Shown: positions 1 to 37,594, counted from the whole stretch's first letter. The stretch is 54,865 bases of DNA, filler included, from Jimgerdemannia flammicorona (GCA_003990765.1; 3 parts of 3 records of this genome joined end to end with filler, not necessarily neighbours in it); one strand, 5' to 3'. The notes: generated from the sequence alone by a model not told the origin. Numbers and translations are program-made.

Positions 1-40
<40 letters not shown>

Positions 41-99
41 GTCCCTTGGACTCCATCTTTATTACCAGTCTATGAATAAGTATATAATATCCTCACCCA

Positions 100-3000
100 C
101 TATCCGATCCCCATCGGGGGGCCCCTCCCTACCTCTTCACATATAAAGACCACCCTCTCACCAACAACTCCAACTCTCCCACCACTCTGACCACAGATTT
201 TCACTACCAAATGGCACCTCCGACCCCCCTGCAGCCCCCAACCAAGCCACCAGCCTGTCAAGATATCCTCCATAAGGCACTGCCACTGTGATAACCAGCT
301 CTCCAAGCTCTGTCACCTCTCCTTCTCAAATACAAATAGCCAGTGACCAGCCAGCCCAACCCAAATAGCCAATGCTCAGCCTAGAGTAATCCACTCCTCC
401 CCTACCCCTCCTATCAATCGATCCCTTAGGTTCTCCCACCTCCCCCATACATTATCACCCCTACGCCTTACCCCCAAGTGGTCCCCAATGGCCTGCCAAA
501 AGTCTCCCAATACTCCACACTCTCCTAGCCAATGTTCTGGCATCTGTACAAATCCCCCTTCCTGCCCTACATTATGGCACTCCTCGCAGTCAAAGCAGTC
601 CCCTTCAACAAGGTATCCTGAGCAGAAGTTAAGCATCACATTCCTCCTCAGCATGCGCCACCAGACCACCCAGTACTTCAGCAGTATCTAATTTTTCACT
701 GTGGCACTCCAGGTCCAAACCTCATACCAGTCCCACTCCTCACCAATTCCAACTCTTTGTCAACCACTAGGCCACAGATCCTAGCCTGGTCTCCTTTGGT
801 ATTCAATTCCATCACCAATATTGAACTCAAGTAAAGGCATGCCTCCCAGAAGAATGCCATCCCATCTCTACATCACCGGGCCCCAATTCCTCTCCCCCTT
901 ATCCCCTCGCCAGTGAATACCAATGCGGTGTGCCCCCTCAGCTATCCCCCACCAGAAGCCTTTATATTGCAGTTGCGCAGTGTTCTGAAGCCCAACTAAT
1001 AAAAGAAGATCACCAGTCAAGCCTCTTGGTAATGTCCACCTCTCCCATACCTTCTGCAGCAGGGGAACCCAGCCCCCTCTACGCAACTCCACCACCCTCC
1101 TAAGCCACCATGCCCTCAAGCAGTGTAGTCATTTGGGGAAGTCCACCAGCCCAAGACCACCTCTCGCCACCAGTAGGAACAAAGTCTCCCAACCAATCTG
1201 ACTCTGTCTGCCAGCCCAAATCTATCCCTTGGCCACCTTCACTAATCTCTTCACCACCTAGACTGGGAAGTCCAGATGATAAGCCAAATACCACAGCTTT
1301 GGCAGCCAGTATACATTCAAAATCGAGATCCTTCCTGCCAGAGAGAAGTGTCTTCCCCCCCAACCCCACAGGTCCTCCTCCCAAATTCCAATCCTCTGCT
1401 CTCACCACAGCCTGGGCAGAACAGATCTATAGACCGACAAATAGATGCCCAAGTACTGCACTGCCTCTCCAGTGGGGACAATTGTTCCAATAACTTCTCC
1501 ACCCATCAGGCCATTGCCCAGCACTATTGTTTTGCACTTGTGCCAATTCAGCTTTGCCCCAGAGTTCTCCTCATACCACTCCACTGTCTTCTTGAGCTCC
1601 TTGACATCTGCAGTCACTCCCAAACCAAACACTATGTCATCTGCAAAGGCTCCAACTTTCCAGCCAACTCCATAGATAGAGAGCCCTACTATCCTCCACC
1701 GGATCCTGTCCATTAGAGGTTCCAAGGAAAGAGTATACAAAATGGGGGACAGTGAGTCCCCCTGGGGCACTCCCCTATCTAGAGGGAATGCTACCCCTCT
1801 ATGCCCATTATATATGATCGCAGCCCTACTTCTTTCCAGTAGGCTGACCATCGCCAACCGAAATGGGACTGGAACTCCAATTCTATCTAACACTTTTGCC
1901 AGCCAGACTCACTGCACCCAGTCATAAGCCTTCTCCTGGTCCAAGAAGATAAGACGCTCATCCAGTCCACAGGCTCGAGCACCTTCAATAACTCCATGTA
2001 TCCAGGCCATGCCATCTCTAATAAGCTGACCCCCTATGAAGCCTCTCTGCTCAATACCCACAATTTGCTGGGCTACCTTCTGTAGCCTTGTGACCACCAC
2101 CTTAGTCACCAACTTTCTGTCCATATCTAGCAACATTATCGGCTGCCAGTTCTTCCAATCCTCTTGCCTTCCTTTGTTCTTATAAAGCAGCATCACCAGC
2201 CCAAGATCCTGCTCCCCCACCCATCTCCCTGACTGCAATATAGAGTTACACAGTGCTGTCAACTCCCCCAACATGCCTGGGACTCCATCCTCCCCAGGCA
2301 CCATACCCAAGGCTGTTGCAGCAAGAACCTGGTGAATCTCGTCCTCCTTTACAGGCATCACCAGGTCCCCTAATCCCTCAGCTTGTGGTGGGTGCCAATC
2401 TTCTAATGTTTGGTCAATAGCTGTAGCATCCACCCCACCCTCCTCCTCACTCCACAATCTACTCCATCGTGCCTTCAGCATTCCAAGGATATCCTGTACA
2501 CTATGCACTAGTATACCATCTGAGTCAAGTACCCCTTCCCACCGCTGCTGTACCCTTCTCGCATGAAGTGTCCTCATGAGAAACTTGGAAGGCCTCTCCC
2601 CTTCCTCCAGCCCCTGCCAATGAAGCCATGCCACCAGGCCTTGTATCCTTGACTCTTCCTCTTCCCGCAGTACCTGTTGTAGTTCCCCAACCTCCATCTT
2701 CACCCTTGTTATTCTCCAATCCTCATCTCCCTCCACTACTGCCAGTCTCGCCCACTCCTCCAGGAGCCTAGCCAATCTAGTAGAAGCCCAATGCACTCTC
2801 CACCTTCGCTGCTTCCCAGCCACTCTGCCAGCCTTGCTCTAATACATCCTGGCCATCTCTTTCATCCTCATCCACCTAACCCCAATTGCAGCCCCTTCCT
2901 GCTGCCAATTTGCCACCTTCAGCTGAATGTCTTTCACCCACTCCTCTCACCGGGACTCATCATCCAACATGGAGGAATTTAGGCACCAATGTCCAGGCCC

Positions 3001-3716
3001 ATCACCACTTCCCCCAAAACACCCCTGTCCCAAAAGGCTCCAGTGATCTGACCACGGACACCATTCTACCTCTAGCACCTTCCAAACATTGCGGCCCCAA
3101 CAGTTGGCCATCAGAATCCAGTCAATTCTTGTTTCCAGACCTCCAGCCCAATGCATATATACCCTCCTGTCCCCCCAGTACTCCCTACCAGCATCCACCA
3201 GTGCTCCTAGCCTTTCGACCTCCTCCCACATTGCCAGCCCCCCACTCCTGCTCTCAGCATCTCATCCTCCATCAGTTCTATCCAGCTGTACATCTCGAAC
3301 CATATTGAAATCTCCTCCAAGCATATCCAATCCAGCTTCAGCAAGGATCCCACTCTCCAGGAGCCCTTTCACCCAATCCACATACTACCCCCGCACTGCA
3401 AGGCAGTAACAGGAACCAACTGTGACTGGCTCCCAACTTGCACAAATCCACTCACCCCAGACCAGTCTCTCCCCCCAGCTCCTCACATCCCTTATCTCCC
3501 CTCTGCCTTTCTGAACCAGAATCCTGACTTTGTTGTTCCAAATCGCCATGCTACTCCATTCCTTAGTCCATTCCATCCTATCAGAATCATCCTTGCACCT
3601 GACATCCTGCAAGAGTTGGCCTCCAATCCCTTTAACCAAATAAAAATGTTCCTGTATCTAACTGTGCCCCTAAGCCCATTCACATTCAAAGAAAAAATAT
3701 TGGTTGTACTGTTCAT
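100..3716 (-). pseudogene. LINE ORF2 (APE endonuclease + reverse transcriptase + C-terminal Cys/His motif), disrupted by stops and frameshifts
   Basis: APE motifs NIFSLNVNGL, RIDWIL, WSDH; RT motifs IFLDQEKAYDWV, GVPQGDSLSPILY, FADD; C-terminal CEEC...EHWLGEC. Split over several ORF-track fragments. Confidence 0.9.
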
Positions 3717-3746
3717 AATGAAATACAGTTTGTTCTCAATCAATCC

Positions 3747-5767
3747 CTACTGCTCCATGTCCATCTCCTCCTGTGCCATGTCCAGATTATATTCAGCCAT
3801 CACCTCCTCCTCTTCAGCCCTCTGAGCTTCTAGTCCAGCCAACAGCTCATTCATCTCCTCATCAGCCTTCTCCTCAAACTCCTCTCTGTACTCGATGCAA
3901 GCCTCCTGCCAAAGCTGCAACCCATGACACCTGTTCCAACAGTACTCAGCCTTCTCCCCAGCAACAACCACCAACTCTGCCTCCCTCTCCTTGTTCACCT
4001 CATACCCTTCCTCCTCCAGATACACTATGAGAATTTCCGCCTTCAGCACCATCACCACTCCTTCCCCCTATAAAATTCTCATCCAGTGCTCGTCACCCAT
4101 CCCATGCAAGTCCACCTCCCCCAGCTCTTCTGCTGCCAGGTTATTCATCATCTGGCACACCCAAAGTAGGTTCCCCACCTCTTTCCCACCAGGGGTCACC
4201 AGCCTCCCTCCATCCATCATCGTGGTATCAGCTCCAGCACTCGTGTCCTCATCCCACACCCCTGGGATATCCACCAGTTCCTCCTCCCCAGCCACCACTA
4301 CTTGGTCCCCATCCATTACCTCCAGAATGCTGAATTTCACCTACTGGGTTCCCAGCATCATCACGTTCTCCCCAGACTTGTTCCTGGAAGCCAGGCCATG
4401 CCTGATAAGAGGAGAAGGGGTGGGGGAGTTCTCCCAGACTTCATCCCAAACCTCCAAGATGCCATCAGCATATGGATCGCTAATCTTCACCTCTTTTGCC
4501 TTCCCTGTCTTTGCCCCATCATTCCCACTCCTCTCACCAGCCCAGACACTTGCTCCGGCCCCTTCTGTACCTGTCTTCATGCTCACATCCTTCTGTGGTC
4601 TACCCCCTAGTTTAGCCAGCAGATCCTTCTGCCTCTTCTGCCCCTGAGCCCTTTCCCACTGTACTTTGTCCACTCGAATCCTCTTTCCATCCACCACCTC
4701 CAGGTGCATCAACTCCTCAAAAGTCTTCCAGGCCTTAGCTCGCTGTTCCACAGCCCCATCCAGCTCCTCCAGCACTTCCAATAAATCTTCCTTCTCTTCT
4801 TCACTTCCTTTCACCTGCATCACCTTGCACAGGAATGCTCCCCAAACCATCCCCGAAGGCCAGTCTCTTGTCTTCCCAGTAGCCTCTTTCCCAGCCAGCC
4901 AAATCCTCACATCCACGTCCCCAGTCCTGAGTGTGGTCCCTTCCCAGACCCTGAATCCGATATCCACTACCTCTCCATACTCCACCATGACATCCTCCAC
5001 TCTCTTCCTCATCTCCATCACCATCACCATGGGTACTCCTTTCACCAGCAGTTGGACCACCCTCGGATCCCATTTCAAACACCTCGCTATCAGAACACAC
5101 ACCTCCCCAACCACCAACCCAACCTTCAGTGTCTCCTCCAGTGGTTCAACCTCCTCAAAGCCCACCTCCACCCCCTCCAGTCCCTTCAGAAACTTCACCG
5201 AAGCCGCTCCTGCCACCTACTTAGTGATAAGCCCCAACACCATTTTCGCCATCACTGCTAAGCCCCAGAAGTACAGCGTGACCATGAATGCTGAGGTCGA
5301 CTTCTTGAGTAACAGAGCCACTGCCAGTCCCATTACACCATCCGTCAGGTCCCTGAGCCTCATGCCCTTCCTACTGCTCAGCTCACCATCAGCAGTCCTA
5401 TCTAGATTTCTTTCCAGATCACCCATCACACCCCTATCAGTAGTCCCTGCCCCAGCTGCTACCCCCCCAGCTCTACCCCTATGGCCCTCCAGAGAGGTAC
5501 CCCCAAGAGGTTGCTGCCTGGTAGCCTTTACCAGTACCTTCCCCCCTCTCAGCTAGCTCTCTAGTCCAGCTCCCTGCCGACCCCCCTACACCTTCTCCGC
5601 AAAGCTCACCCTGCCAGACCCTTGACCTTCAGCTCCACCCCCTCCTCCACCATGGCCTCCTGCCAGCAGGCCCCTCATACTTCCCCCCAAGCCAGGGCCT
5701 CTCTCCACTTGCTGCCATTCAAATGCTCCAGGGCCACCCTGCCCAGTATGCACCTCTGGATACTCAT
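3747..5767 (-). pseudogene. LINE ORF1, disrupted
   Basis: Co-oriented acidic ORF fragments 3747-4058, 4068-4340, 4341-5216 and 5217-5429 directly upstream of ORF2; homologous text recurs in LINE copy 3 (48234-48641). Start ATG at 5767 is inferred. Confidence 0.75.
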
Positions 5768-5856
5768 TGGTCGCTATGATACTAGTAGCTTTTCTCCAGA
5801 AACTGTGTTGAAAGTGTTGCCAAAAGCTTGTGTAACCTGAATGTTACTGAAGAAAG

Positions 5857-6618
5857 ATGTTCGCTTAATCAGGATCTTTGGCTGAGCAGTTGGCAAGCAG
5901 TAAGAATTGGTGAGAACTGAGATTGGGCAGAAGTCTGGACATAGAGTGCTGAGGTATGGAGGTGGCTTTCTCCCAAGTACTGGATAGTATGGTGGCAGAT
6001 TCTATGGAGGAATGTCATGTTAAATTTCTATGCTGAGCATCTGATGGATGGTGGCCTACTGGAATGCAAAGCATGCTACAATGTTGGATTTGTGCAGATG
6101 TCAGAATATTGGCTGGGAGAGTGTGAGGTTCTGGGGGACTTTTGGATAGCAGTAGGAGACTGGCTAGGGGTAAAGAGGAGACCAGAGGAGGAGAGAGATC
6201 ACTGGAAAGATTTGAGAACTAGGTTGGTAGATAGAGTGGGTAATGAATGGCTCACTGTAGGGTGGGTTTTAGCTGTATAGATAGGGCTAGCTGGACATTG
6301 GCTCTTTATTTTTAAGGAGGAGCAACAGCTGGGTCTGTAGGAGAGGTTGTTAAGATGAGAGGGATTGGTGGGAGATACATATACTGATAGGGTGGTGAAT
6401 TGGATGAGGTCCCCAGGGTGGGTGTCACCACCATCTGGTGGAAGTAATCTGTAGACAGAGTAGTGGGCAGATGGAGGTGATTAATGGCCTAGTGGTCTTT
6501 AATTAAGAGGGAGTGGGGGAGTGAGGGCCCCCTAGAGGAATCAGATAGGGGTGGGCTTAGTATATTATATGTATATGGGATAGATGGCTGTATTAATAAA
6601 GGAAGAAGTCTAAGTGAC

Positions 6619-6650
<32 letters not shown>
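5857..6650 (+). mobile_element. 3' fragment of a related LINE (copy 2) with poly(A) tail
   Basis: ORF 6017-6280 (CKAC...EYWLGEC) is homologous to the C-terminus of copy 1 ORF2; AATAAA at 6595-6600; A-run 6622-6650. Confidence 0.88.
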
Positions 6651-6653
<3 letters not shown>

Positions 6654-8178
6654 AGGCTATCTAGACTATGCTAAATATGGATATAGCACTTAGTGCCTTA
6701 CTGAGTCAGAATGTGGTTATGTAGTACAAGTGTAATCTGATATATTAAGAGATCACCTAACGTTCACAGTCATATTATACAAAGCTAATCTAACTATACT
6801 AATGACTGCTAAGCTATCTATAGGTTTAGGCACTGTCTGGGTAGTCTTTAATAACATCACCATCAATGATATCATCTCTGATAAAGTAATTATCTAGAAA
6901 GAGTGGTTCTCAGATTACTTCTCTCTGTTTGCTCAGATAATAATATATACATTGAGACCTCATCACCATTCTACAGAATAGTATCATCTGTCTCATATAC
7001 TAGATATGGAGTTGGTGGGCAAAGGAGGGGTATATCATCTTTGCTTTCATTGGATTTGCTGTCTGCATATCTTCTATAAGTTATAGTACTATGTATTGCT
7101 AGATTGTAGTAAGTAGTTCATTTTATTTATACTCAGGAGGTAGAGTGGTTGATTCAATCTTAAAGGTTATCTAGAGATATAGGTTGTATTCTCTGGTCTC
7201 TTCATTGTAGTTGAAGTAATCAGGGGTAAATGTGGGCTAATATTCATACCAGTAGTCATTGTCTCAATAAGTGGTTATGAACTATTGTAAATTTATCAGC
7301 AAGGTTGGCAGGATGATCAGAGTTAGCAGAGATCTCTGACTGGAGGTCATGTTGGTGTTAGAGAGATCATTATCTTCTGCTTTGTCATCATCAAATTAGA
7401 TTATATCATTGATATCCTTCATAGCATATCCAACTTGAGGCATTTGTAAGATATGGTCATCAGGGTTTGGGAAGGTTCTGTCTGTAGTTTGAATGTACTT
7501 GATATACTTGTAGTTGAGTTCTTATATTATGTACATCATCAATTTAGCCATAGGATAGAGTGGTAATCATTTTGATAGTAGTAACTTAGAGGTAGGGAAT
7601 AAAAGAGCTGTACTTGTAGAAGAGTTCTTAATGTTTACAAGTGATGAGTTTCTGGTATTGAGACATTTGAGTAATATCTGTATCATAGTAGTATTTGACT
7701 ATATCTTCCAGGAGACAGCTGATCTAATAGTAGCTTGAGATTTATCTGATTTAGTGAGTCTCACTAAGTATATTCAGGGCATTCCATCAGGCTTCCACAA
7801 AGTAGAAGAATACTAGACTATAGATATTTATGAGAGACAGAGAGAGTGTGGCTCAGTTGACAATAGCATTCCAAATGTCAGTACAGATATAGTTATAGAT
7901 CTCAGTAATCATATTTGTATATATATTTAAGAGTTGTAGTTATTTGTTTGGATTGTTATAGTTCTCTGTTTTGATGTATCTGAGTACTTAGTATATATGT
8001 ATTTAGTCCTAATTGATAAGGTTCTGTTTGTGTAAATCTTATATTCTGTGACTTTGAGTTAACTCAGCTTTGTGCTCTGTGACTTTAGTTTGACTCAGCT
8101 TTATAATCTTGATGTGATTTTCAAATTTATTCAGAGGGTGATGTGTGATTTCAGTAGCTTAGAGATTGTGTACTTACA
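6651..8178 (-). repeat. 3' LTR of copy A (U3 part), interrupted by the LINE poly(A) just before the TATA box
   Basis: Begins TGTAAG on the minus strand at 8178; aligns to the solo LTR up to about its position 11860. Confidence 0.9.
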
Positions 8179-8192: not shown

Positions 8193-10576
8193 AGCTTTCA
8201 ATATCCTCATCAAGATCTTCTAATTTTGGTCTAGTGTTGTTACACTATTTAGATGGTCAAAAGTCCAGTAATATATATTTTTCTCTAAAAGTGGTATACT
8301 AATAGTATAGTTGCCTAATGCATTAGATTTACACATTAAAGAGTTGTATATTCAATGTTATATACCAGAAGTGATTCTGATATTATTCACTACTGGAGAA
8401 TTTCCTCTAAGGAATCTTCTTAAATATCTATATCTCATTTCTCACCAGTAGTATAGAGATAATAGGCTGGCTTTCAGTTTTATTAGTTTTCTAGAGAGTT
8501 AGTATTCTTTTTGTCTTGATTTACTGAGTTCTTGATTTTGTTTGTATAATTATAAGGGTACTTCATGTTTGGGAGGGATAATATATATTATAGACTGATA
8601 GATACTAGAGTATATAGCTTCAGTTGTTCAAGAAATCATATTCTTGAACTAGGTCAGTAGCATTCTGGAGATTGATCTTTGGTTCCCATGTTGCATCATA
8701 GATCAGATAACTTTTCTATTTGATAAGATATTCTAGATAGTTCTTGTAGCCATATTTGTTGAGAATTTGTTCAACTTTGTATTCTTCTTAGTCATTAATA
8801 ATAATAGGTACAGGTGGTTTTATAGTCCAGTTTGGAAATAGCTCATCATTATTATTATTATATTGCTTGAGATGTTGGATATTGAAGACCAGGTGAATCT
8901 TAATGGTGTCTGATAGTGCTAATTTATAGAAAGTTGGAGAGACCTGTATGATGACTTTGAATGGTCCAATAAATTTACTGTTCAGCTTTGTAAATGGTCT
9001 GTACTTGAGATTGTCAACTCAGTATCCTTGGATATCTAGTAGAACTTTTTCTCTGATGTCAAAAGTTTCTTCTTGGTAGTACTGGTTGACATACTATAAC
9101 TGTTATTCTTGAGCTCAGGATAAGTTCTTGATTGCAATCTGGCTTAAGTTGTATATTTGGAACAGAAATTCTTCAATAGCTTCAATAGTAGAGAGTTTAT
9201 CAGTAGTTTAGATAAGTGTCAGAGGAGTATTTGGGTTTTGTTCAATATTGGTAAAGAATTGGGTCATTCTAAGAGAGACTTACTTATTGTTATTATAGGC
9301 AAACTCAACTACAGTGAAATATTCATGCCAATCATCTTGTCTATAGGAAATATAGTTCCTTAGTATTTGCTCTAGAGTTCAGTTCATTCTTTCAGTTTGA
9401 CCATCAGTTTTAGAGTAAAAGGTTATAGATAGCATGAGTTTCATTCTAAGGTATACATAGAGGGCTTTCTAAAAGTGGCTGGTAAATTTTGGATCTCAGT
9501 CACTAATAATGATCTTGGAGAGACTATGATAGTAGAAGATATTGTCAAAAAAGAGTGTAGCTATATCTGGTACTATGGCAGTATTAGTAGTTAGCACAAA
9601 ATGAGCTTGTTTACTAAGATAGTCTATGAAGACAACAATTGCATCTTTTTCATTCTTAGTCTAAAGTAGTTATATAATAAAGTCTATAGAGATTTGTTCC
9701 CAATTAGCAGATAGTACTGAGATAGAGTATAGTAGGCCAGGTTTTGCTAGTATTGAGGACTTGTTGTATTGGCAGATATCATAGGAAGTAATGTAGGTCT
9801 TTAGCTGATCAGTTATATGGGGCCAAATAGAAGTTTCAAGAAATAACTTCATAGTATTTGTCAAATTCTAAATATCTGACTATAGGGGTATCATGACATT
9901 TGAATAGGATAGTTCTTCAGAGATCTTAATTGTTTGGAATATATAATTTATCCTTATAGTAGATAGTATTATTCTTTAGTTAGTATTAGTGATACTGGGT
10001 GTATATGCTAATATCATCACTGCTCAGGATTTCTTAGAGTACTTGAGCTTCTTTGTTATTAGTATATACTATGATAATTTATTTCATAATAGAGTTGGTA
10101 ACCAAGATAAGAGTTTGGATAACTTCTTTAATTGGTAGTCTAGAGATTGTATTGATAACAATATTCTCCTTGCTAGGATGATACTGGATTTTATAATCAA
10201 AGTTGGTGAGGACTTTTATCTATCTGACTTACTTTTGGGAAAGGGTAATGATTTGTGGTCCATTAAAACAGTAAAGTGTGTATCTTCTTGTAAGCACACA
10301 ACCTCCAAGCCACCAAAATTATATGTCACCCTCTGAACAAGCCACTGAAATCACATGTGACCTCCAAACAAATCAGGAAATCACCTACTTGATCACAAAG
10401 CTGAGTCAAACCAAAGTCACAGTGCACAAAGCTGAGTCAATATGAAGTTACAGAACACAAGATTTACATAAATAGAATCTTACCAATTAGGACCAAATGC
10501 ATATATACCAAGCACCAAGATGCATCAAATCAGAGAACCAAAACAAACAACAACTATAACTTCCAAACACACAAAC

Positions 10577-11674
10577 ATGAGTACCGAGATCTACAACTGT
10601 ATCTGTACTGACATTTGGAATACCATTGTCAACCAAGCTACACTCCCTCTGCCCCTCATGAATATCCATAGCCTGGCACCCCTCTACTTTGTGGAAGCCC
10701 GATGAAATGCTCTGAACATGCTTAGCGAGGCCCACCAAATTGGACAAATCTCAAGCTACTACCAGATCGGCCACCTCCTGGAAAACATGGTCGAATACCA
10801 CCATGATATAGACATTACCCAGATGTCTCAACACCAGAAGCTCATCGCCTGCAAACATCGAGAACTCTTCTACAAGTATAGCACCATTATTCCCCACCTC
10901 CAAGTTACCACAGCTGAAATAGTTGCTATCCTATCCTATGGCCAAATTGACAACATGATACAAGAACTCAACCACAAGTACCTCGAATACATCGAAACCA
11001 CAGACAGAACCTTTCCACACCCCAATGATCACATCCTGCAAATGCCCCAAGTTGGATACGCCATGAAGGATATCTACGATATAATCTACTTCAATGAAGA
11101 TGAAGCAGAAGACAATGACCCCTCCAACACTGATATGACCTCTAGCCAAGGATCTCTACCAACCCTGATCACTCCACCAACCTTGCTGATGAACTTACAA
11201 CAGTTTATAACTGCATATGAGACTTATTAGGACAATGACCACTGGTATGAATACTAACCCGCATTTACCCCCAATTACTTCAACTACAATGAAGAGACTG
11301 GAGAACACAACCTGTACCTCCAGACCATCCTTGAGATCGAACCAACCACTCCACCACCTGAGTACAAGCAATATGAACTACAGCCATCAGCTTACTACAA
11401 TCCTGCAACTCATAGTGCTGTAACCTATAGAAGGTATGCAGACAGCGAATTCGATGAAAGTGAAGACAATACACCCATCCTTCGTCCACCAACACCTTAT
11501 CTAGTATACGAGACAGACAATGCTATCCTGTGGGACAGAGATGAAGTTCCAATATATTATTACCTCAGCGAACAAGGAGAAGTAATCCGCAAACCATTAT
11601 TCCTAGACAACTACTTCATCAGAGATGATACAATTGATGGTGATATCATCGAAGACTACCTAGACAGTACCTAA
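10577..11674 (+). pseudogene. LTR (U3)-encoded ORF of ~365 codons, unknown acidic Tyr-rich protein; three nonsense lesions in this copy
   Basis: One frame from a conserved ATG (MSTEIY) to TAA 11672-11674, with stops only at 10703, 11228 and 11255. The last two read W and Q in the copy C 5' LTR (TYETYWDNDHWHEYQ); the first is TGG in copy C LTRs. Confidence 0.8.
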
Positions 11675-11863
11675 ACCCATAAATAGCCTAGCAGTTATAG
11701 TATAGTTAGATTAGCCTTGTACGATGTGACTGTGAACTGACTCAGCAGCCAGACGATCTCTTGACATGTCAGATCACACTTGTACTATATGACTGCATTC
11801 TGACTCAGTAAGGTACTTAGTGCTATATCTATATCTAGCATAGTCCAGATAGCCCCTCACTAG

Positions 11864-11870
11864 TATAAAT
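11864..11870 (+). promoter_or_regulatory. Putative LTR TATA box (TATAAAT)
   Basis: Conserved in the LTR copies that cover this region; lies downstream of the U3 ORF and ~120 bp upstream of an AATAAA (11987-11992). Confidence 0.6.
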
Positions 11871-14800
11871 ACCCCCTCCCCCAGACCTCAGAATCTCAGA
11901 CTCGAATACACAAGAACATTCCTGAATACTTCCCCACAATACCCCTTCACACAACTACTCCTAGTACAGCAATATCATGAATAGCGAATAAACCTATTTA
12001 ATAACCCATAAACTACTCTTAAGTAAATCTACTTCCCATTAGGTCCTACTCCTAACCCCATCACGAAATTTCCTAATTGGGTATTGTCTGCAGTGATACA
12101 CCAATTCAACTAAGCTGGTCTTAGTTTCTTGAACTTTCTGAAATACGGAAAATCCTGAACATCCAGAACAAGTCCGAAGAAGGACTTTGGTTGAGATGTC
12201 AACCTGATCTTGAAATCAATAAGCATAGAGGACATACTCCATATGAAATTGATCTTGACCATAAGAAAACAGTCTTCCAGAATATCCAGAACTTCCAGAA
12301 AACCCTTCTAGAACTACATAATGGCTACCCTAAAAAGTAACCCTCTTACACTTCTAGATATGGTTGCTATTTGATCAGGATATCTACAATGACTAGCATT
12401 TCCTTCTCATGGGTTATATAGTTAATTTTGGTATCATTGAACTTATAAGAATGATAGACTACAGAGTGTCCTTCTTGTATGAGCACTGCTCCAAGAGCTA
12501 GATCTGAGACATTAGTGATAACTTTATATAGTAGAGTAGAGTTTGCCACTTGAAGTACTGAAGTGGTTATCAAGATATCTTTTAGTACTTAAAAGGCTGT
12601 ATCTTGTTTGGGTCCCCTATTTATAAGATTGTTAAAGTCTTTTTCTTATTTCATGGTCCAGGGCTGTTCTTCTTTCTTACTATGCTTGGTCATTTAGGTA
12701 AGAGTGATAGTGATCTTGACAAAGTTGGCAACAAATCACTAGTAATAGTTTGTTAGTTCTAGAAATGATTAGAGGTCTTTCAACTTCTTGGGTCTGGGCC
12801 ATTCCTTAATTGCAGAGATTTTACTGGAGTCCACTTTGATTCTATTAGGAGTGACAATGTGTTCAAGAAATTGAATTTCCTTCAAGAGGAATTTACACTT
12901 GCTGAGTTTTGCAAAGAGTCAGTTTTCTCAGAGTTTTAATAGTACTAGTTCAAGATGTTTGAGATATTCCTTCAGAGTTTTGCTAAAGACTAGGATGTCA
13001 TCAATGTAAACAATAATGAATTTGTCTAGATATAGGTGTAGAATGATATTCATCAGGGTCTGGAAGATTGCAGGAGCATTAGTTAAGCCAAAGAATATAA
13101 CTAAGAACTTAAAATATCTATAGTAAGTTTGGAAGAGTGTTTTGTAGATATGTATCTTCTTCTTTTATGGCAATTTGCCAGTAACCATTCTGTAGGTCAA
13201 AAGAGCTCATGAACTATAGATTGGTAAGCCTATCAAATATTTCATCAATTCAGAATAGTAGGCAACAGTTCTTGATAGTTTGTTCATTGAGATCACAGTA
13301 ATCAATACATATTTACAGGTCTCCTCTTTTCTTGAACTAGTGCACCATAGGGTGATATATTGGGTCTAATGAATTCTTATTTTAGGAGTTTATTAATTTC
13401 TTTCTTGAGTACATCAATTTCTCTCAGAGATATGTGGTAGATTAACTTGAAGGCTGGCTTGGCATCTGGGATAGTCTTAATGGTATGGTCTACTGCTTAT
13501 TTAGATGATAGGCCTTTTGGAAGTTTCTTTGAGAATATGTCTCAGAATTTCTGGAGTAGAGGTCTAACACAGCTGTCAACTTTGGAAAAAATCTTCTTCA
13601 GGGTTCTCTGGTTCTTCTTTGGATAAGCAGATAGAGATAGCAAATAGAGGGCATTTCCTGGCTAATTTCTTAAGTTGTAGCTTATTGATGTGGGTGATCT
13701 TTAATCCAGAGTTACTAGAACTGAGTGAGTCCTTTTCACCTTGCAGTTTGAAGTTGTGGCATCCTTTCTTAATAGTCAGAAAATAGTTTACCCAATCAAT
13801 CATAAGGTTCTCTTATTTTAACCATGGGGTTCCAAGGATGATTTTATTGTCAGAAAGTAGTATAATTTGAAATGTAATATATACTCAGTAGTCACCAATT
13901 CAGAAGGGCAGATTGCAGACTTCCTTGCTAATAATATAAGAGATTTCATCAGCTGTAGCAACTGCTTAAGTCTATTGTACTGGAGAGGTCAGGACCTTGA
14001 GTCTATTAACTGTTTCATTATTGATTAAGTTGCCTGAGGCACTACTGTCTATTATAATCTTAATAGATGCTCAGTTGACAAAAGCTTGAAGTATAAGTAG
14101 TTTGTCTAATCTAATAGTAGTGATTTTGGTTATAGAAACTTTCTTTCTGTTGATTCTTCTTTGGGTCAGTTCATTGATACAAAAGAAGCAATTATTGATT
14201 ATTCAGGAAGAGTACATTCCAATACCATGGGGGTATTGGCCACTTAGTATAAATCTATCTTCAATTTTCTTCTTCTTTATTTATAGTAGGTTGAGCTGAG
14301 GTCTTATTTGATGAGCCAAATTCTCTGAATCCTTAGATAGTAGGCAGTAGTTCAGAGACTTTCTTGACTGTTAGAGTTGATTTGATTTTTTCAAATAGGA
14401 TCTGAGTAATGCAAAAATCAATAGAGATCTTGAAGGGTATTCTATTATGGTTTTGGATGAGAATAATGATTTTGCCTATATAATCCTCATCAATGACTCC
14501 TCTTTCTACTGAGAGTCCTTTCAATACTAGGCTGCTGTAACAGTATATTCTTCTAATATATCCTTCAGGAATTTGAATACTGATTCCTGTGTAGACTTAC
14601 TTAACTTCTCAGTTGGAAACTATAGCTTCTTCAGCTATATATAGGTCATATCTTACTGCTTTTTGACTTCCTTTGGTTGGGATCTTGGCCATTTGTCTTA
14701 ACTTGACAAAGTCCAGTATTTTGGTAGTCAGGTTATTGAGGTGATACAGAGTAGTAACAGTTACTTATATTGCTGTTCAGGGGTTTCAGTTAGGGTAGGT

Positions 14801-16732: not shown

Positions 16733-17356
16733 TGTAAAAGGGTTACTTGTTAGGATAACTGTTATGTAGTTCTGGAAGGGTTTTCTGAAAGTTCTGAATA
16801 TTTTAGAAGACTGTTTTCTTAAGGTCAAGATCAATTTCATATAGAGTATATCCTCTATGCTTATTGATTTCAAGATTGGGTTGATGTCTCAACTAAAGTT
16901 CTTATTTAGACTAGTTCTGGATGTTCAGGATATTCTATATTTCAGAAAGTTCAAGAAACTAAGACTAGCTTAGTTGAATTGGCATATTGTTACAGACAAT
17001 ACCTAATTAGGAAATTTTGTGATAGGGTTAGAAGTGGGACCTAACAGAGAGTAGATTTACTTAAGAGTAGTTTGTGGATTATTAAATAGATTTATTTGCT
17101 ATTTGTGATATTACTATACTAGGAGTAGTGTGTGAAGAGATATTGTGGAGAAGTATTCAGGAGTTGTATTTGGATTATTCTTATCTGTTTAAGTCTGTTC
17201 AAGTCTGAGATTCTGAGGTCTGGGAGAGGAGATATTTATACTAATAGAAGGCTATCTGAACTATACTAAATATGGATATAACACTTAGTGTCTTACTGAG
17301 TTGAAATATAGTTATATAGTATAAGTGTGATCTGACATGTTAAGAGATCATCTGAC
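16733..17356 (-). repeat. Truncated 5' LTR of copy A (end of U3, R, U5)
   Basis: Aligns with the last ~620 bp of the solo LTR; followed on the minus strand by the degenerate PBS. Confidence 0.88.
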
Positions 17357-18222: not shown

Positions 18223-18322
18223 NNNNNNNNNNNNNNNNNNNNNNNNNNNNNNNNNNNNNNNNNNNNTTAATTAATTAANNNNNNNNNNNNNNNNNNNNNN
18301 NNNNNNNNNNNNNNNNNNNNNN
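18223..18322. other. Assembly gap (100 nt) with artificial TTAATTAATTAA linker
   Basis: N44-TTAATTAATTAA-N44, preceded by a T-run at 18192-18222 that is probably another LINE tail. Confidence 0.97.
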
Positions 18323-21392: not shown

Positions 21393-23427
21393 TATAAGTA
21401 TACAATCTCTAAACCACTGAAATCACATATCACCCTCAGAACAAATTTAGAAATCATATATAAGATTATGAAGCTAAGTTAAATCAAAGTTATAGATCAC
21501 AAAGCTGAGTTAACTTAAAGTCATAGAATATAAGATTTATAAAAACATAATCTTACTAATTAGAACTAAAAGTATAGACTGAATATATAGATATATCAAA
21601 ATAAAGAACTACAATAAACTAAATAAATAACTATAACTCTTAAATATATATAAATATGACTACTGAAATCTACAATTATATCTATACTGATATTTAGAAT
21701 ATTATTATCAATTGAGTTATAGCTTTCTACTTCTTATGAATATCTATAGTCTAGTACTCCTCTATTTCATAAAAGTCTGATAGAATGCCCTGAACATACT
21801 TAGTAAAGTTCACTGAATTAGACAAATCTCAAGCTACTAGATCAGTTACCTTCTAGAAGATATAGTTAGCTATTACTATAATATAGATATTATCAAAATG
21901 TCTCAATATTAGAAACTCATTATGCAAATACCAAGAACTCTTCTATGAGTATAGCACCTTTATTCTCTACCTCTAAGTTACTATTACTGAAATAATTCCT
22001 ACTCTATCTTATAGCCAAATCAATGATATAGTATAAGAACTCAATTATAAATATACACCTAAACTATAGACAGACTCTTTCTGTACCCTGATGACCATAT
22101 CTTGCAAATATCTCAAGTTAAATATATCATAAAGGATATCTATAATATAATCCAATTTGATAATAATAAAGCAGAAGATAATTCCTCTGATACTAATATG
22201 ACCTCTAGCCAAGGATCTCTACTAACTCTAATTACTCCACCAATCTTACCAATAAACTTATAATAGTTTATAACTATCTATAAGATTTATTAGAATAATA
22301 ACTACTGGTATAAGTTTCCAATCTACATTTATATCTGATTACTTCAACTATAATGAAGAATCAGAGAATATAATCTATATCTCCAGACAACTCTCAAGAT
22401 TGAACTAACAACTCTACCTTCTAAATATAAATAAAATGAACTACAGCTATCAGTATACTATAACCCTACAACTTATAGCACTATAACTTATCAAAGATAT
22501 GCTAATAGTGAATCCAATAAAGGTAAAGACAATGTATCTCTTCTTTATCCATCAATACTCTATCTAGTATATAAGATAGATAATATCATTCTATGGGATA
22601 GTGATATGGTTTCAACTTACTACTATATAAATGAATAAGAAGATATTATCCAAGAACCACTCTTCTTAGATAACTACTTTATCAGAGATAATATCATTGA
22701 TGGTAATCCCATTGAAGAATATCCAGATAGCCTCTAAATCTATAGATAGCTTAATAGTCATTAGTATAGTTAGAATAATCTTATACTATATATATGACTA
22801 CATACTGACTCAGCAGTTAGATGATCTCTTGATATGTCAGTTCATACTAGTACTATATGACTATATTCTGATTTATCAAAGTACTAAGTACTATATCCAT
22901 ATTTAATATAGTCTAGATAGTCTCCCATTAGTATAAATACCCACTCTTCCAGACCTCAGAAATTTAGACAAAAATATAGACAATAAGTCAAGAATACTTC
23001 TCTATACAAATATCTCTTTATACACTACTCCTAGTATAGCAATATCATAAATAGTGAATAAACCTATTTAATAATCCATAAACTACTCTTAAGTAAATCT
23101 ATACCCTATTAGTTCTCACTCCTAACTAGATCTTGAAATTTTTTAATTAGGTATTGTCTGCAGTGATACATATACTAATTCAACTAAGCTGATCTTAGTT
23201 TTTTAAACTTTCTGAAATACAGAAATTTCTGAATCTCCAGAATAAGTCTAAAAAGGGGACTTTGATTGAGATATTAATCTAATCTTAAAATTAATAAACA
23301 TAAAGAATATACTCCATATAAAATTAATCTTAACCTTAAAAGAAAATAGTTTTCTAGAATATCCAGAACTTCCAGAAAACCCTTCTAGAACTATGTAACA
23401 GTACTCTAATAAAGTAACCCTCTTACA
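21393..23427 (+). repeat. 5' LTR of copy B
   Basis: Colinear with the solo LTR, with many transitions. Confidence 0.9.
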
Positions 23428-25847: not shown

Positions 25848-27927
25848 TGTAAGAGGGTTGCTTTTTAGGATAACTGTTACATAGTTCTGAAAGGGTTTTC
25901 TAGAAGTTCTGAATATTCTGGAAGACTGTTTTCTTAAGATCAAGATCAATTTCATATGGAGTACATTCTCTATGCTTATTAATTTCAAAATTAGGTTGAT
26001 GTCTCAACTAAAGTCTTTTTTCAGACTAGTTCTGAATGTTCAGGATTTTTTATATTTCAGGAAGTTCAAGAAACTAAGACCAGCTTAGTTGAATTGGCAT
26101 ATTGCTGCAGACAATACCCAATTAGGAAATTTCGTAACAGAGTTAGGAGTGGGACCTAACAGAGAGTAGATTTACTTAAGTATGGTTTGTGGATTATTAA
26201 ATAGGTTTATTCGCTATTCATAATATTGCTATACTAGGAGTAGTTATATATATAAAGGGATATTGTGAGGAAGTGCTCAGGAGTTGTGTTCAGATTGTTC
26301 AAATATTCAAGTCTGAGATTCTGAGGTCTGGGGGAGGGGATATTTATACTAGTGAGAGGCTATCTGAATTATGTTAGATATGGATATAGTACTTAGTACC
26401 TTGCTGAGTTAGAATGCAGTTATACATATAGTACAAGTGTGATCTGATATATCAAGAGATCATCTGACTGCTGAGTCAGTTCACAGTCACATTGTACAAG
26501 GCTAATCTAACTATACTATGACTGCTAAGCTATTTATAGATTTAGACACTATCTAGATAGTCTTTGATGATATTACTATCAATGACATTATCTCTAATGA
26601 AGTAGTCATCTAAGAAGAGTGGTTTGCAGATTACTTTTTCTTATTCACTGAGATAATAATACATTGGAACTTCATCACCATCCTACAGGATAGCATCATC
26701 TGTTTCATATGCTGGGTAAGGTATTGGTGGGCAAAGGAGTAGTACATCATCTTCACTTTCATCAGATTCACTGTCTGTGTATCTTCTATAGGTTATAGCA
26801 CTATGAGTCACAGGATTGTAGTAAGCTGGTGGCTGTGGTTCATATCACTTGTACTCAGGTAGTAGAGTGGTTGGTTCAATCTCAAGGGTTGTCTGAAGGT
26901 ACAGATTATGTTCTCCTGTCTCTTTATTATAGTTAAAGTAATTGGAATTAAACATGGGTTAGTATTTATACCAGTTGTCATTGTCCCAGTAGGTCTCATA
27001 GGTAATTATGAACTATTGTAAGTTCATTGGCAAGGTTGGTGATATGATCAGGGTTGGCAGAGATTCTTGGCTAGAGGTCATATCAGCATCAGAGAGATCA
27101 TTGTCTTCTGCTTTGTCTTCATCAAATCAGATTATATCATAGACATCCTTCATCATGTATCTGACTTGAGATATTTGTAGAATATGATCATCAGGGTGCA
27201 GGAAGGTTCTGTCTGTGGTCTGAATATATTCAAGATACTTGTGGTTAAGTTCTTGTATCATGTCATCGATTTGGCCATAAGACAGGGTAGCAACTATTTT
27301 GATAGTAGTAACTTGGAGATGGGGGATAAAGGTGCTATACTCATAGAAGAGTTCTCAATATTTGTAGGCAATGAGTTTCTAGTGTTGGGATATCTGGGTG
27401 ATATTTATATTATGATGGTATTTGACCATATCTTCTAGGAGATAGTTGATCTGGTAGTAGCTTGAGATTTGTCTGATTTGGTGGGCTTCACTAAGTATGT
27501 TCAGGGCATTCCACCAGGCTTCCATGAAGTAGAGGGGTGCTAGACTATGGATATTCATGAGGGGCAGAGAGAGTGTAGCTCAGTTGACCATAGTATTCTA
27601 AATGTCAGCACAGATATAATTGTAGATCTCAGTGGTCATATTTGTGTATATTCAGAAGTTATGATTATTGTTTGTTTTGGTTCTCTATTTTGATGCATCT
27701 TGGTACTCAGTATATATACATTTAGTCCTGATTGGTAAGATTCCATTTGTGTAAACCTTGTGTTCTGTGACTTCATATTGACTCAGCTTTGTGTGCTGTG
27801 ACTTCAGTTTGACAGCTTCATAATTGAGCAAGTGATTTCCAGATTTGTTCAGAGGTTGTATGTGATTTCAGTGGCTTGTTCAGAGGGTGACATGTGATTT
27901 CTGTGGCTTGGAGGTTGTGCACTTACA
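25848..27927 (-). repeat. 3' LTR of copy C (2080 bp)
   Basis: Termini, adjacent PPT (27928-27941) and homology to the solo LTR. Confidence 0.95.
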
Positions 27928-28284
27928 ACTCTCCCCTTCTTAGCTTTTGATATACTCATTGGAGCCTTCTAATTTGTTCTAGTGTTGTTACACCATTTGG
28001 GAGATCAAAAGTCTGGTAAAGTCCATTTTTCTCAGAAAGTGGCATGCTCATAGTACAGTTGCCTAATGTATTGGATTTATATATTAAAGGGTTGTATGTT
28101 CAATACTGTACACCAGAAGTGATTCTGATATCATTCACTGCTGGAGAATTTCCTCTAAGAAATCTTCTTAAATATGTATCTATATGTATCTTGTTTTCTA
28201 CCAGTGGTATGGGGAGAATAGGCTTGCTTTCAGTTTTGTTATTTTTTTCTAGAGGGTTGGTAGTGTTTGGGTTTTAGTTGTTTA

Positions 28285-28443
28285 AGAAATCATATTCCTG
28301 AACTAAGTCAATAGTATTCTGGAGATTGGTCTTGGGTTCCTATATTGCATTGTGGATCGGATAACCTTTTCATTTGATAAGATACTTAGGGTGGTTCTTG
28401 TTGTTATGTTTGTTGAGGATTTGTTCAACTTCATATTCTTCTT
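28285..28443 (-). other. Integrase C-terminal chromodomain
   Basis: EEYEVEQILNKHNNKNHPKYLIK*KGYPIHNAI*EPKTNL, i.e. the YEVExI...YLIKWKGY...TWEP consensus with both W codons mutated to stops. Confidence 0.9.
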
Positions 28444-31400
28444 AGTCATTAATAATGATAGGTGCAGGTGGTTCAGTGGTTCAGTTCAGAAATAGCTTAT
28501 CATCATTTTTATTATATCACTTGAGATATTGGATATTGAAGACTGGGTAGATTTTAATGATATCTGGTAGCACTAATTTGTAGGAAGTAGAAGAGATCTG
28601 TGTAATGACTTTGAAGAGTCCAATAAACTTGCTGTTCAGCTTTGTAGATAGTCTGTGCTTGAGATTATCAACTCAGTATCCTTGGATGTCTAATAGAACT
28701 TTTTCTCTAATATCAAAAGTCTCTTCTCAGTGGTATTGATTGATATACTGTAACTATTGTTCTTGAGCTTGCAATAAGTTCTCAATTGTGATCTGGCTTA
28801 GATTGCATATTCAGAGCAGGAATTCTTCAACAGCTTTGACTGTGGAGGGTTCGTCAGTGGTTTGGATAAGTGTCAGAGGAGTGTTTGGGTTTTATCCTAT
28901 ATTGGCAAAGAATAGGATCATTCTCAAAGAGGCTTGCTTGCTATTGTTATAGGCAAACTTGACTGCAGTGAGGTATTTATGCCAATCATCTTGTTTGTAG
29001 AAAACATAGTTCCTTAGCATTTGTTCCAGAGTTCAGTTCATTCTTTCAGTTTGGCCATCAGTTTCAAGGTAAAAGACTGTGGATAGTATTAGTTTTATTT
29101 CAAGGTGTGTATAGAGGGCTTTTCAAAAGTAGCTGGTGAATTTTGGGTCTCAGTCACTAACAATAATCTTGGAGAGACTATGATAGTAGAAGATATTGTC
29201 AAACAAGAGTATAGCTATATATGGTGCTGTTGCAGTAGTAGTAGTTGGCATGAAGTGAACTTGTTTGCTGAGATAATTCACAAAGATAATAATTGTATCT
29301 TTCTCATTCTTGGTTCAGGGTAGTTGTATAATAAAATCCATAGAGATTTATTCCCAATTAGTAGATGGTACTGGGATAAGGTAGAGTAGGCCAGGCTTTG
29401 CTAGTGTTGAGGACTTGTTCCATTGGCAGACATCACAGAAAGTGATATAGATCTTGAGCTAATCTGCCATGCAGGGCCAATAGAAGTTTTGGGAGATAAC
29501 TTTATAACATTTGTCAAATCCTAAATGTCTAGCTGTAGAGATATCATGACATTCAAATAGGATAGTTCTTCAGAGGTCTTGGTTGTTTGGAATATACAAT
29601 CTGTCTTTGTAGTAAATAGTATTATCCTTGAGTTAGTATTAGTTGAACTGGGTATGCTTGTCAGTATCATCATATTTCAGAATTTCTTAGAGTGCTTGAG
29701 CTTCTTTATCATCAGCATATGCAGTGATAATTTATTCCATGATGGAGTTTGTAACCAAGGTGAGGGTTTGGATAACTTCTTTGATTGGTGGTCTGGAGAT
29801 TGCATCAGTAATAATATTTTCCTTGCCAGGGTGGTACTGGATTTCATAGTCAAAGTTAGTGAGGACTTTCATCCATCTGGCTTACTTTTGAGAAAGGGTA
29901 GCCTGGATCTTGATGTTGACTAATGACTTGTGATCAGTCAATACAGTGAAGTATACTCCTTCTAGGTATAGTCACTATTTGATCAGAGTATCTACAATAG
30001 CTAACATTTCCTTCTTATAAAGTTATATAGTTGATTTCAGTATCATTAAACTTACAGGAATGATAGGCCACAGGATGTCCTTCTTGTATAAGCACTGCTC
30101 CAAGGGCTAGATCAGAGACATCAGTAGTAACTTCATATGGTAGGGCAGGGTTTCCTACTTGAAGTACTGGAGTGGTTATCAAGGCATCCTTTAGTGCTTA
30201 AAAGGCTGTATCTTATTCAGATCTCCAATTTACAAGATTGTTGAAGTCTTTTTCTTGTTTCACGGTCCAGAGCTGCTCTTCTTTCTTATTGTGCTTGGTC
30301 ATTTGGATAAGAGTAGTAGTGATTTTAGCAAAGTTGACAACAAATTGCCTGTAGTAGTTTGCTAATCCTAGAAATGACTGGAGATCTTTCAGCTTCTTGG
30401 GTCTGGGCCAATCCTTAATTGTGGAGATTTTGCTGAAGTCCACTTTGATTTTATTTAGTATAATAATATATCCAAGAAATTGAATTTCTTTTAAGAGAAA
30501 TTTGCATTTGCTGAGTTTTGCAAAGAGTTGGTTTTCTTGGAGTTTCAGTAGTACTAGTTTGAGGTGTTCAAGATATTCCTCCAGGGTTTTGCTAAAGACT
30601 AGGATGTTATCAATATAGACAACAACAAATTTGTCCAGATATGAGTGCAGGATGGTGTTCATCAGTGTCTGGAAGATTGCAGGAGCATTAGTTAAGCTAA
30701 AAGGTATAATCAGGAACTTGAAGTGTCTATAGTGAGTTCAGAAGACTATCTTGTAGATGTCTTTTTCTTTTATGACAATTTGTCAATAACCATTTTGTAG
30801 GTCAAAAGAGCTTATGAATTGTGAGTTAGTGAGTCTATCGAATATTTCATTGATTTTGGATAGTGGGCAACAGTTCTTGATGGTCTGTTCATTGAGATTG
30901 CAGTAATCAATATACATTCGCAAGTCTCCTCCTTTCTTTATAACAAAGAGGACTGGTGCACTATAGAGTGATACACTGGATCTGATGAAGCCTTGTTCTA
31001 GAAGCTTATTGATTTTCTTCTTGAGTGTATCAATTTCTCTTAGAGATATGTGGTAGATTGACTTGAAGGCTGGCTTGACATCTGGAATGGTTTTGATAGT
31101 ATGGTCTACTGCTCATTGAGGAGGTAGGCCTTTCAGAAGTTTCTTTGGGAATATGTCTTAAAATTTCTGAAGTAGGGGTCTGACATGACTGTCAACTTTG
31201 AAAAAGTCTTCTTTGGAGTTCTCAGGTTCTCCTTTGGATGGGCAGATGGAGATAGCAAAGAGAGGGCATTTCTTGGCTAATTTCTTGAGTTATAGCTTAT
31301 TGATATGAGTGATCTTTGGTCCAGAGTTACTAGAGTTAAGTGGGTCCTTTTCTCCTTGCAGTTTGAAGTTATGACATCCTTTCTTAATGGTCAGAGAATG

Positions 31401-31934
31401 ATTCACCCAATCAATCATGAGGTTCTCTTGTTTTAATCATAGAGTTCCAAGGATGATCTCATTGTCAGGAAGTGGTACTATCTGGAGGGTAATATGTACT
31501 CAATAGTTACCAATTCAGAAGGGTAGGTTGCAGACTTCCTTGCTAATAACATGTGAGGTTCCATCAGCTGTGGCAACTGCTTGAGTTTGTTGTACTGGAG
31601 AGGTGAAGACCTTGAGTCTGTTGGCTGTTTCTTTATTGATGAAGTTGCCTGAGGCACTACTGTCTATCATAATCTTGACAGGTGCTCAGTTGACAAAAGC
31701 TTGAAGTGTAAGCAGTTTGTCTGATCCAATAGTGGTGATTTCAGTTGTAGGAGTTTTCCTTCTGTTGGTTCTTCTTTGAGCCAATTCATTGACACAAGAG
31801 AAGCAATCATTGATCATTTGGGAAGAGTACATTCCAATGCCATGGGGGCATTGGTCACTAGGTATATATCCATCTTTGATTTTCTTATAGAATTGTTCAT
31901 CTTTATTCACAGTAGGCTGGGCTAGAGCCTTGTT

Positions 31935-34355: not shown

Positions 34356-34367
34356 CCACTACTACCA
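34356..34367 (-). other. Putative primer-binding site (TGGTAGTAGTGG), 3 nt after the 5' LTR; compatible with initiator tRNA-Met after C-to-T decay
   Basis: TGG start at the expected position; TGGTAGC is the usual start of an iMet PBS. The tRNA identity is an inference. Confidence 0.6.
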
Positions 34368-34370
34368 AGT

Positions 34371-37481: not shown

Positions 37482-37544
<63 letters not shown>

Positions 37545-37559
37545 GCAACAGCTCCAGCA

Positions 37560-37594
<35 letters not shown>

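Follow-up and report, generated by a model that had tools for sequence, protein, structure and literature searches.

The DNA examined here, a window of 54,865 nucleotides (filler included) from Jimgerdemannia flammicorona (GCA_003990765.1), is overall a nest of retroelements much altered by transitions, in which self-comparison and a six-way alignment placed one long terminal repeat (LTR) family of ~2.06 kb at six places. One of the copies is a solo LTR of 2062 bp with TG..CA ends (TGTAAG...CTTACA), flanked on both sides by the 5-bp target-site duplication CTTCT, and within its U3 region lies a sense open reading frame (ORF) in frame 1, of 365 codons closed by a TAA terminator. The ORF starts 288 nt from the first base of the LTR and is contained in the repeat from ATG to stop, wholly upstream of TATAAATA, which begins 190 nt past the ORF stop. 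A first-pass annotation of the same sequence had described a sense ORF inside the LTR and upstream of the TATA box, present in all five LTR copies that cover U3 and broken in the solo copy by three stops that are each a single transition away from sense; this observation was confirmed. The features concerned are the following, with the LTR boundaries set by three independent criteria.

10289–12350, plus strand: solo LTR, the least mutated copy, nested in the internal region of element A
10284–10288, no strand: left copy of the target-site duplication CTTCT (right copy at 12351–12355)
10289–10576, plus strand: 5' part of U3 ahead of the ORF, with two pairs of ~31-nt tandem repeats and a TATATA-like box
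10577–11674, plus strand: the LTR ORF, 365 codons plus TAA, with three internal stops in the solo copy
11864–11871, plus strand: TATAAATA, the presumed genomic-RNA promoter, with the U3/R boundary presumably shortly downstream
11987–11992, plus strand: AATAAA, the presumed polyadenylation signal, with the R/U5 boundary presumably shortly downstream
34371–36443, minus strand: 5' LTR of element B; ORF copy at 36153–35057 with 6 internal stops and a 1-nt deletion
25848–27927, minus strand: 3' LTR of element B; ORF copy at 27639–26542 with the frame intact and 10 internal stops
27928–34370, minus strand: internal region of element B, with a gag-like frame, dUTPase, protease, reverse transcriptase, RNase H, integrase (H2C2, SH3) and chromodomain
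21393–23427, plus strand: LTR of element C; ORF copy at 21656–22737 with 14 internal stops and 7 private indels
6651–8178, minus strand: truncated 3' LTR of element A, with its break at 6651; ORF copy at 7912–6826 with 17 internal stops and 4 private indels
16733–17354, minus strand: remnant of the 5' LTR of element A, the last ~620 bp only; ORF missing

All five LTR copies that cover this part of U3 (the solo LTR, both LTRs of B, that of C and the 3' LTR of A) carry the ORF, and a tblastn search of the window with the ORF found no similarity outside them. The ATG at 10577 is conserved in the five copies and matches the first methionine of P0002, one of two relatives found outside the window, which begins at this residue and thereby supports the start. 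Two in-phase ATGs further upstream were rejected as start codons: the one at 10442 is absent from C and from the 3' LTR of A and is followed by a TAA in the solo copy, and the one at 10520 is put out of phase by 2-nt indels in both LTRs of B. The internal stops of the solo copy are TGA at 10703–10705, TAG at 11228–11230 and TAA at 11255–11257, and other copies read TGG at the first (both LTRs of B and the 3' LTR of A), TGG at the second (both LTRs of B) and CAA at the third (the 5' LTR of B and C). The same holds for every in-frame stop of the five copies, since another copy keeps CAA, CAG, TGG or CGA at that codon. Many of the stops come from CGA mutated on either strand (TGA or CAA), and they differ by copy. 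The reading frame as such is kept in the solo copy and the 3' LTR of B only, frame-breaking indels being found in the 5' LTR of B, in C and in the 3' LTR of A.

Every copy of the element and of the ORF in the window is dead. The two LTRs of one element are identical at insertion, and those of element B now differ within the ORF by transitions at 13.0% of sites and by transversions at 0.2%. The C>T changes prefer CpG (0.55) over CpA (0.35), CpC (0.24) and CpT (0.11). A transition hypermutation resembling repeat-induced point mutation (RIP) explains the damage, the five copies having been inactivated by it after the subfamilies had diverged. The preference for CpG over CpA is unlike that of Neurospora RIP, which prefers CpA.

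Selection was tested by counting transversions only, which leaves hypermutation out, against a column-wise consensus in which C>T and G>A changes were undone by a heuristic rule. In this de-mutated consensus the sense frame of the ORF contains no stop in 365 codons, and the other two sense frames contain 12 and 19 and the three antisense frames 2, 20 and 15. Since the rule removes T and A, and hence stops, in all frames, the open frame might be a chance or compositional artefact of the A/C-rich strand and of the rule itself. However, the same rule leaves 12–20 stops in four other frames and 12–21 in the LTR past the ORF, and open relatives exist without any correction. An artefact of this kind, already contradicted by the transversion tests and the alignments of the relatives described below, is barely credible to us.

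The transversion-variable sites of the ORF are distributed over codon positions 1, 2 and 3 as 16/5/29 (n = 50, p = 0.00017), and no codon periodicity of transversions was seen in the LTR flanks before and after the ORF (p = 0.31 and 0.47). Read in the ORF frame, these 50 sites comprise 26 synonymous, 24 non-synonymous and 0 stop-making changes (p = 2.1e-9), where the expectation for random transversions of this consensus is 15.4% synonymous and 5.1% stop-creating. In the same test p was at least 0.029 for the other five frames and at least 0.021 for the LTR flanks. As a positive control, 753 pol codons of A, B and a further fragment, D, gave 26/20/0 (p = 1.2e-9) and a non-synonymous/synonymous ratio of 0.17; the ratio of the ORF is ~0.18, and therefore the constraint is about equal to that on pol and the gene would be one additional to gag and pol. 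The ORF frame was thus under purifying selection at the protein level, approximately as strong as that on pol, while the LTR subfamilies diverged.

The indels agree with this pattern. Each of the 12 indels in the ORF is confined to a single decayed copy: C has 7 of them, the 3' LTR of A has 4 and the 5' LTR of B has 1. In the compared flanks, 474 nt in total, three indels (31, 6 and 1 nt) are common to two lineages; indels of this shared kind occur in the part of U3 ahead of the ORF (10289–10576). No stop or frameshift in the ORF is common to lineages. The first-pass annotation had named codon-level constraint between subfamilies, with C-to-T sites excluded, and indel analysis among the checks to be made, and stops or frameshifts fixed in the consensus as what would speak against it. 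The first check was strongly positive, no frameshift proved to be shared, and the consensus has no stop.

U3 regions are regulatory, and the ORF is known from DNA sequence, with no run on record as RNA, so that constraint on a function of the DNA or RNA (U3 enhancers, RNA structure, packaging) could have kept the sequence and left the open frame as a by-product. Such a function would not readily account for a constraint of period three that is confined to one frame (16/5/29, with 26 of the 50 transversions synonymous in this frame only), for the absence of stops from 365 codons, or for the share of conservative replacements relative to the second outside relative, P0001, which at 0.51 exceeds the highest value in neutral simulations (0.43). 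This explanation appears very improbable to us.

The possibility that the real gene runs antisense was raised by the in-register antisense frame, which has only 2 stops over the ORF region and, in the de-mutated consensus, an open stretch of 283 codons from 11602 to 10754 on the minus strand, in register with the sense codons. Antisense genes do exist in fungal Gypsy elements, brtn of Boty and Boty-like elements among them. However, in the antisense frame the transversions divide into 12 synonymous, 37 non-synonymous and 1 stop-making (p = 0.23), and variability would peak at codon position 1 of that frame. The sense ORF is also the longer of the two open stretches, sense codon usage by itself is expected to leave few stops in the complementary in-register frame, and each of the outside relatives was called in the sense frame and has its end or its start in common with it. 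An antisense gene is, in our view, extremely improbable.

Relatives were sought among ~5.8 billion clustered proteins by word-indexed searches for proteins of similar or shorter length, up to 639 aa, and by a word-indexed profile search; these yielded P0001 and P0002. A HMMER search over 1.84 billion representatives, with a profile of the 247 C-terminal positions only, returned P0001 alone, and no encoded relative was found in metagenome contigs, scanned twice, or in viral contigs. P0001, a protein of 247 aa on an ENA contig of 998 nt, aligns with codons 115–364 with 154 identities and 201 positives over 250 positions (62% identity) and two 2-residue gaps only; two of the solo-copy stops correspond to W and Q in this protein, whose C-terminal residue falls on codon 365, the final codon before the stop. 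When the ORF was made to drift neutrally to the amino-acid identity of P0001 (400 simulation runs per value of kappa), the probability of meeting no stop was 0.005–0.007, a figure to be read with the reservation that only open sequences enter a protein set, so that this selection accounts in part for the missing stops. The pattern of replacements is unaffected by this, and positives make up 0.51 of the mismatches observed, compared with 0.26–0.28 in the simulations. P0002, a protein of 128 aa annotated 'hypothetical protein' on a JGI contig of 1180 nt, is identical to the solo copy at 102 of 128 residues and to the de-mutated consensus at 117 of 128, with W at the first solo stop and R where the copies in the window carry C, Q or H. 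P0002 looks un-mutated, and its agreement with the consensus and with the first Met validates both the start codon and the correction rule.

As P0001 and P0002, the only relatives, are known without genomic context, the ORF might instead be a captured host gene or fragment carried passively in the LTR, its conservation predating the capture. LTR retroelements do capture cellular sequence, and the ORF is unlike any other part of the element. However, the excess of synonymous transversions was measured among LTR copies of four separate lineages and therefore arose once the sequence was already in the LTR; this excess equals that of pol, and no frame-breaking indel is common to the lineages. Moreover, the contigs of 998 and 1180 nt that encode the two relatives are of a length typical of repeats that break assemblies, and thousands of short soil-metagenome contigs match the LTR. 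We regard passive carriage of a captured gene as improbable, though less so than the explanations weighed above.

Public sequencing contigs placed on the LTR at a likeness of at least 80% numbered 3202 in X1, a soil metagenome, 465 in X3 (organism A) and 431 in X7 (organism B), and their differences from the LTR are mainly transitions. At position 11229, in the second stop of the solo copy, G restores TGG over the full X1 depth of 750.6 and over 39.6 of the X3 depth of 43.6. Indels recorded inside the ORF amount to one +1/−1 pair 5 nt apart, in X7, and those in the rest of the LTR to six. Among the public runs, none on record as RNA holds the stretch and none holds more than 0.20 of its words, and of the raw reads of X24 (organism A) 0 were placed on the LTR. 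The depth of X7 is 0–22 over most of U3 and 4300–7500 over 11945–12150, rising from 176 in the bin 11876–11944 to 7498 in the bin 11945–12013. If X7 were RNA, which is a guess only, this profile would fit a transcription start shortly after the TATA box, with the ORF in U3; it says nothing firm on expression of the ORF. One X7 contig of 9601 nt (depth 369) matches 11122–11483 at ~81% over its first 362 letters and is then unlike the LTR, and may represent a relative in which the 3' part of the ORF or its neighbourhood differs.

The element that carries the ORF is, judging from its domains and signals, a Ty3/Gypsy chromovirus with a dUTPase. The sequence evidence for a fungal host, named in the first-pass annotation, is indirect, consisting of the RIP-like hypermutation, of the similarity to dUTPase chromoviruses reported from fungi, and of the soil and root metagenomes in which the sequence occurs. 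A primer-binding site, TGGTAGTAGTGG (TGGTAG...), lies 3–4 nt past the 5' LTR in elements B, C and A, a purine tract precedes the 3' LTR in B (AAGAAGGGGAGAG) and in A (AAAAAGGGGAGAG), and TATAC is duplicated at both ends of element B (25848–36443, minus strand). On the internal region of B, translated with X at stops, the Pfam families follow one another in the order dUTPase, gag-asp_proteas, RVT_1, RT_RNaseH_2, Integrase_H2C2, SH3_Tf2-1 and Chromo, the dUTPase (E = 2e-25) standing between a gag-like frame and the protease. Pfam recognised no gag domain in copies A, B or C; the gag-like coding frame was found ahead of the dUTPase by the transversion test instead (33/44/7, p = 1.3e-6). It occupies nt 108–1562 of the internal region of B in a frame that differs from that of pol, and would therefore be joined to pol by a frameshift or be a separate ORF. 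Besides the solo LTR, which sits inside the internal region of A, the nesting includes element B, inserted into the internal region of C at 25848. Fragment D (49145–52247) consists of two pieces in opposite orientation, 51672–49145 and 51666–52247.

The product of the ORF has an isoelectric point of 4.3, with 9.1% Tyr and 6.9% Pro. At maximum Kyte–Doolittle values (window of 19) of 1.16 for the solo copy, 0.97 for P0001 and 0.57 for P0002, no transmembrane segment is apparent. The first-pass description of an acidic, Tyr/Pro-rich protein lacking such a segment was borne out. An env-like third ORF was considered and rejected, no hydrophobic segment being present in the solo copy or in either relative. 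The PPPEY motif in the same description does exist in the solo copy, as PPEY, but the PPxY is found there only: the site reads PLPEY in the 5' LTR of B, LLPEY in its 3' LTR, LPSKY in C and TPLSEY in P0001. An AlphaFold2 model from a three-row alignment reached a mean predicted local distance difference test score (pLDDT) of 30.4 and a predicted template-modelling (TM) score of 0.20, with helices only in the first ~140 residues. The N-terminal third is weakly predicted to be helical; the rest has no confident fold.

Several observations weigh against reading the ORF as a gene of the element. No intact full-length copy was seen, the five copies in the window having between 3 and 17 internal stops each (3 in the solo LTR, 6 and 10 in the 5' and 3' LTRs of B, 14 in C and 17 in A) and frame-breaking indels in three of the five. 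The selection test comprises 4 independent lineages and 50 sites and uses a heuristic rule for undoing transitions, and codons 1–114 taken alone have too few transversions for it (3/2/3); even so, they have the lowest transversion density in the LTR, and their transitions are periodic (42/26/58). Only two relatives, both partial, were found among the ~5.8 billion clustered proteins, and either, known as a protein on a short contig, might be encoded by a cellular gene and not by a copy of the LTR. The sole deep X7 contig over 11229 (depth 368.7) reads A, like the window, and is unlike the LTR beyond 11483; the contig records listed cover this stop site, the other two stop sites not being among them. 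Support from fold or function was likewise wanting. At E up to 10, Pfam gave no family for the ORF, P0001 or P0002, and a four-row profile gave no match among PDB sequences, which leaves the protein an orphan. In the ESM Atlas P0001 had no usable feature match (its own model has a pLDDT of 0.39 and a best TM score of 0.30), and the best entries for P0002, at 0.93, share only 145–155 features, below the guide value of 170, and were taken as chance. A PPxY late-domain protein was rejected because the motif is not conserved among copies and relatives.

With these points taken into account, we consider it very probable that a Ty3/Gypsy chromovirus has, or once had, in this ORF a genuine protein-coding accessory gene, located entirely in the U3 of a 2-kb LTR. 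The core proposal of the first-pass annotation, a U3 accessory gene that is doubled along with the LTR and persists in solo LTRs, is supported by the codon-level constraint, by stops and indels private to single copies and by the open relatives outside the window. As a consequence of its place in the LTR, the gene is present twice in each insertion and survives in solo LTRs: every round of reverse transcription puts it at both ends of the new insertion, and recombination between LTRs retains it in the solo LTR. On the genomic RNA (R-U5...U3-R) it comes last, downstream of pol, and its protein would serve the element in trans. As to function, we offer a low-confidence guess, namely that the protein is an adaptor without enzymatic activity, whose partner would be a host factor or a protein or RNA of the element itself, and which might act in RNA export, particle assembly, copy-number control or anti-silencing.

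How an accessory gene in this position would be expressed is suggested by the U3 sequence ahead of it. By eye, pairs of ~31-nt tandem repeats lie at about 10310–10372 and 10395–10456 and a TATATA-like box at about 10499–10507, ~70 nt ahead of the ATG, which makes the first 288 bp of U3 a candidate promoter of the ORF. Transcription from this promoter to the polyadenylation signal of the LTR would yield an mRNA of ~1.5 kb, and every LTR would then be a gene complete in itself; alternatively, the protein would be made from a spliced sub-genomic RNA, and we hold the two routes to be about equally likely. A further-reaching form of the first route, in which the repeats act as enhancers together with the TATA-like box, each LTR gives the ~1.5-kb mRNA and solo LTRs supply a new orphan accessory factor in trans, is doubtful, although it has a better chance than any of the rival explanations considered above. 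If it held, possible roles of the factor would include opposition to genome defence by RIP, methylation or RNA silencing, control of copy number, and the export or packaging of genomic RNA, and the carrier, with its dUTPase, would be a 'complex retrotransposon' that had converged on the gene layout of mouse mammary tumour virus (MMTV).

The rest of the window contains further elements and host genes. A non-LTR retroelement resembling a long interspersed nuclear element (LINE) occupies 1–6650 on the minus strand (RVT_1, E = 1e-24), with a poly(A) run at the first bases of the window and a T-run on its own strand at 6620–6650, and cuts the 3' LTR of element A at 6651. Its GC content is ~50%, with 37% C and 15% G on the plus strand (GC skew −0.3 to −0.5), and a ~780-nt inverted repeat of 65% identity occupies the two ends of the stretch (9–782 and 5871–6650). 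Pieces weakly similar to it (~70%) lie at 45828–46033 and 48430–48722, in a C-rich stretch from 46000 to 49100. Ordinary host genes are found in the GC-rich unmutated part at 36994–37920, 41668–42333 (minus strand) and 42409–43701, namely a TFIIA-like gene, an N-terminal piece of a protein kinase and ArgJ (E = 4e-118). Four runs of 44 non-ACGT letters (18223–18266, 18279–18322, 36545–36588 and 36601–36644), which represent masked or withheld sequence, form two pairs, each with a spacing of 12 nt.

Carrying accessory genes within the LTR is considered characteristic of complex retroviruses, and the usual description of LTR retrotransposons, especially those of fungi, is of gag–pol elements whose LTRs are short and non-coding. 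The closest known arrangement is that of MMTV, whose long LTR contains sag in its U3, ahead of the TATA box, as the last gene on the genomic RNA; Sag is a type II membrane glycoprotein, and MMTV also encodes a dUTPase next to the protease. As in MMTV, we found a sense ORF of a few hundred codons in the U3 of an unusually long LTR, duplicated with the LTR, in an element that also encodes a dUTPase. However, unlike Sag, the product has no hydrophobic segment (Kyte–Doolittle maximum 1.16) and no Pfam match at E up to 10, and the element is a chromovirus without env in a fungal genome. The resemblance is one of arrangement, not of descent. Lentiviral nef and the bel/bet frames of foamy viruses are likewise accessory frames, located 3'-terminally and extending into the LTR; they overlap U3 partly and need spliced mRNAs, whereas here the whole ORF is inside the LTR.

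Extra ORFs of other LTR retroelements were also compared. Plant Ogre/Tat elements carry extra ORFs, and passages of the literature name the env-like ORF of Athila, CERV of the Caenorhabditis elegans element Cer1 and the ORF3s of bdelloid elements. Such extra ORFs, brtn included, are known from the internal region, where they are placed either ahead of gag or after pol, short of the LTR; they occur once per element and are lost when a solo LTR forms. The ORF described here is like them in being a lineage-specific accessory ORF, of unknown or non-enzymatic function, beside gag–pol, and unlike them, given these positions, in lying in the repeat itself. According to 10.1101/2021.04.13.439636, brtn is an additional ORF of the Botrytis element BcGypsy1. 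Chromoviruses with a dUTPase, whose position varies, include PosPlaTy3 of Postia placenta, elements of Phanerochaete chrysosporium and Tmt1 of Tuber melanosporum, according to passages of PMC2864245. The backbone of these elements (Ty3/Gypsy with chromodomain and dUTPase) is the same as that found here, with the dUTPase in our element between gag and protease; the same passages describe no ORF inside an LTR, and a figure legend names an 'add. ORF' of unknown function whose position these passages do not give. In the literature searched, which lies mostly outside subscription journals, we met no report that places an ORF within the LTR of a fungal element or of another non-retroviral one, only MMTV and unrelated uses of the terms.

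The U3 gene found here, selected as strongly as pol, shows that a non-infectious retrotransposon can evolve the layout of a complex retrovirus. The genetics of such a gene are unusual, with two copies per element that are homogenised at each replication cycle and that survive in solo LTRs. The protein family is untouched, with two relatives among ~5.8 billion clustered proteins. Repeat masking and hypermutation keep genes of this kind out of annotations, and a synonymous/non-synonymous test on transversions alone recovers them from dead copies. Should the protein prove to oppose genome defence or to affect copy number, the conflict of fungal transposons with RIP or silencing would become accessible from a new side.

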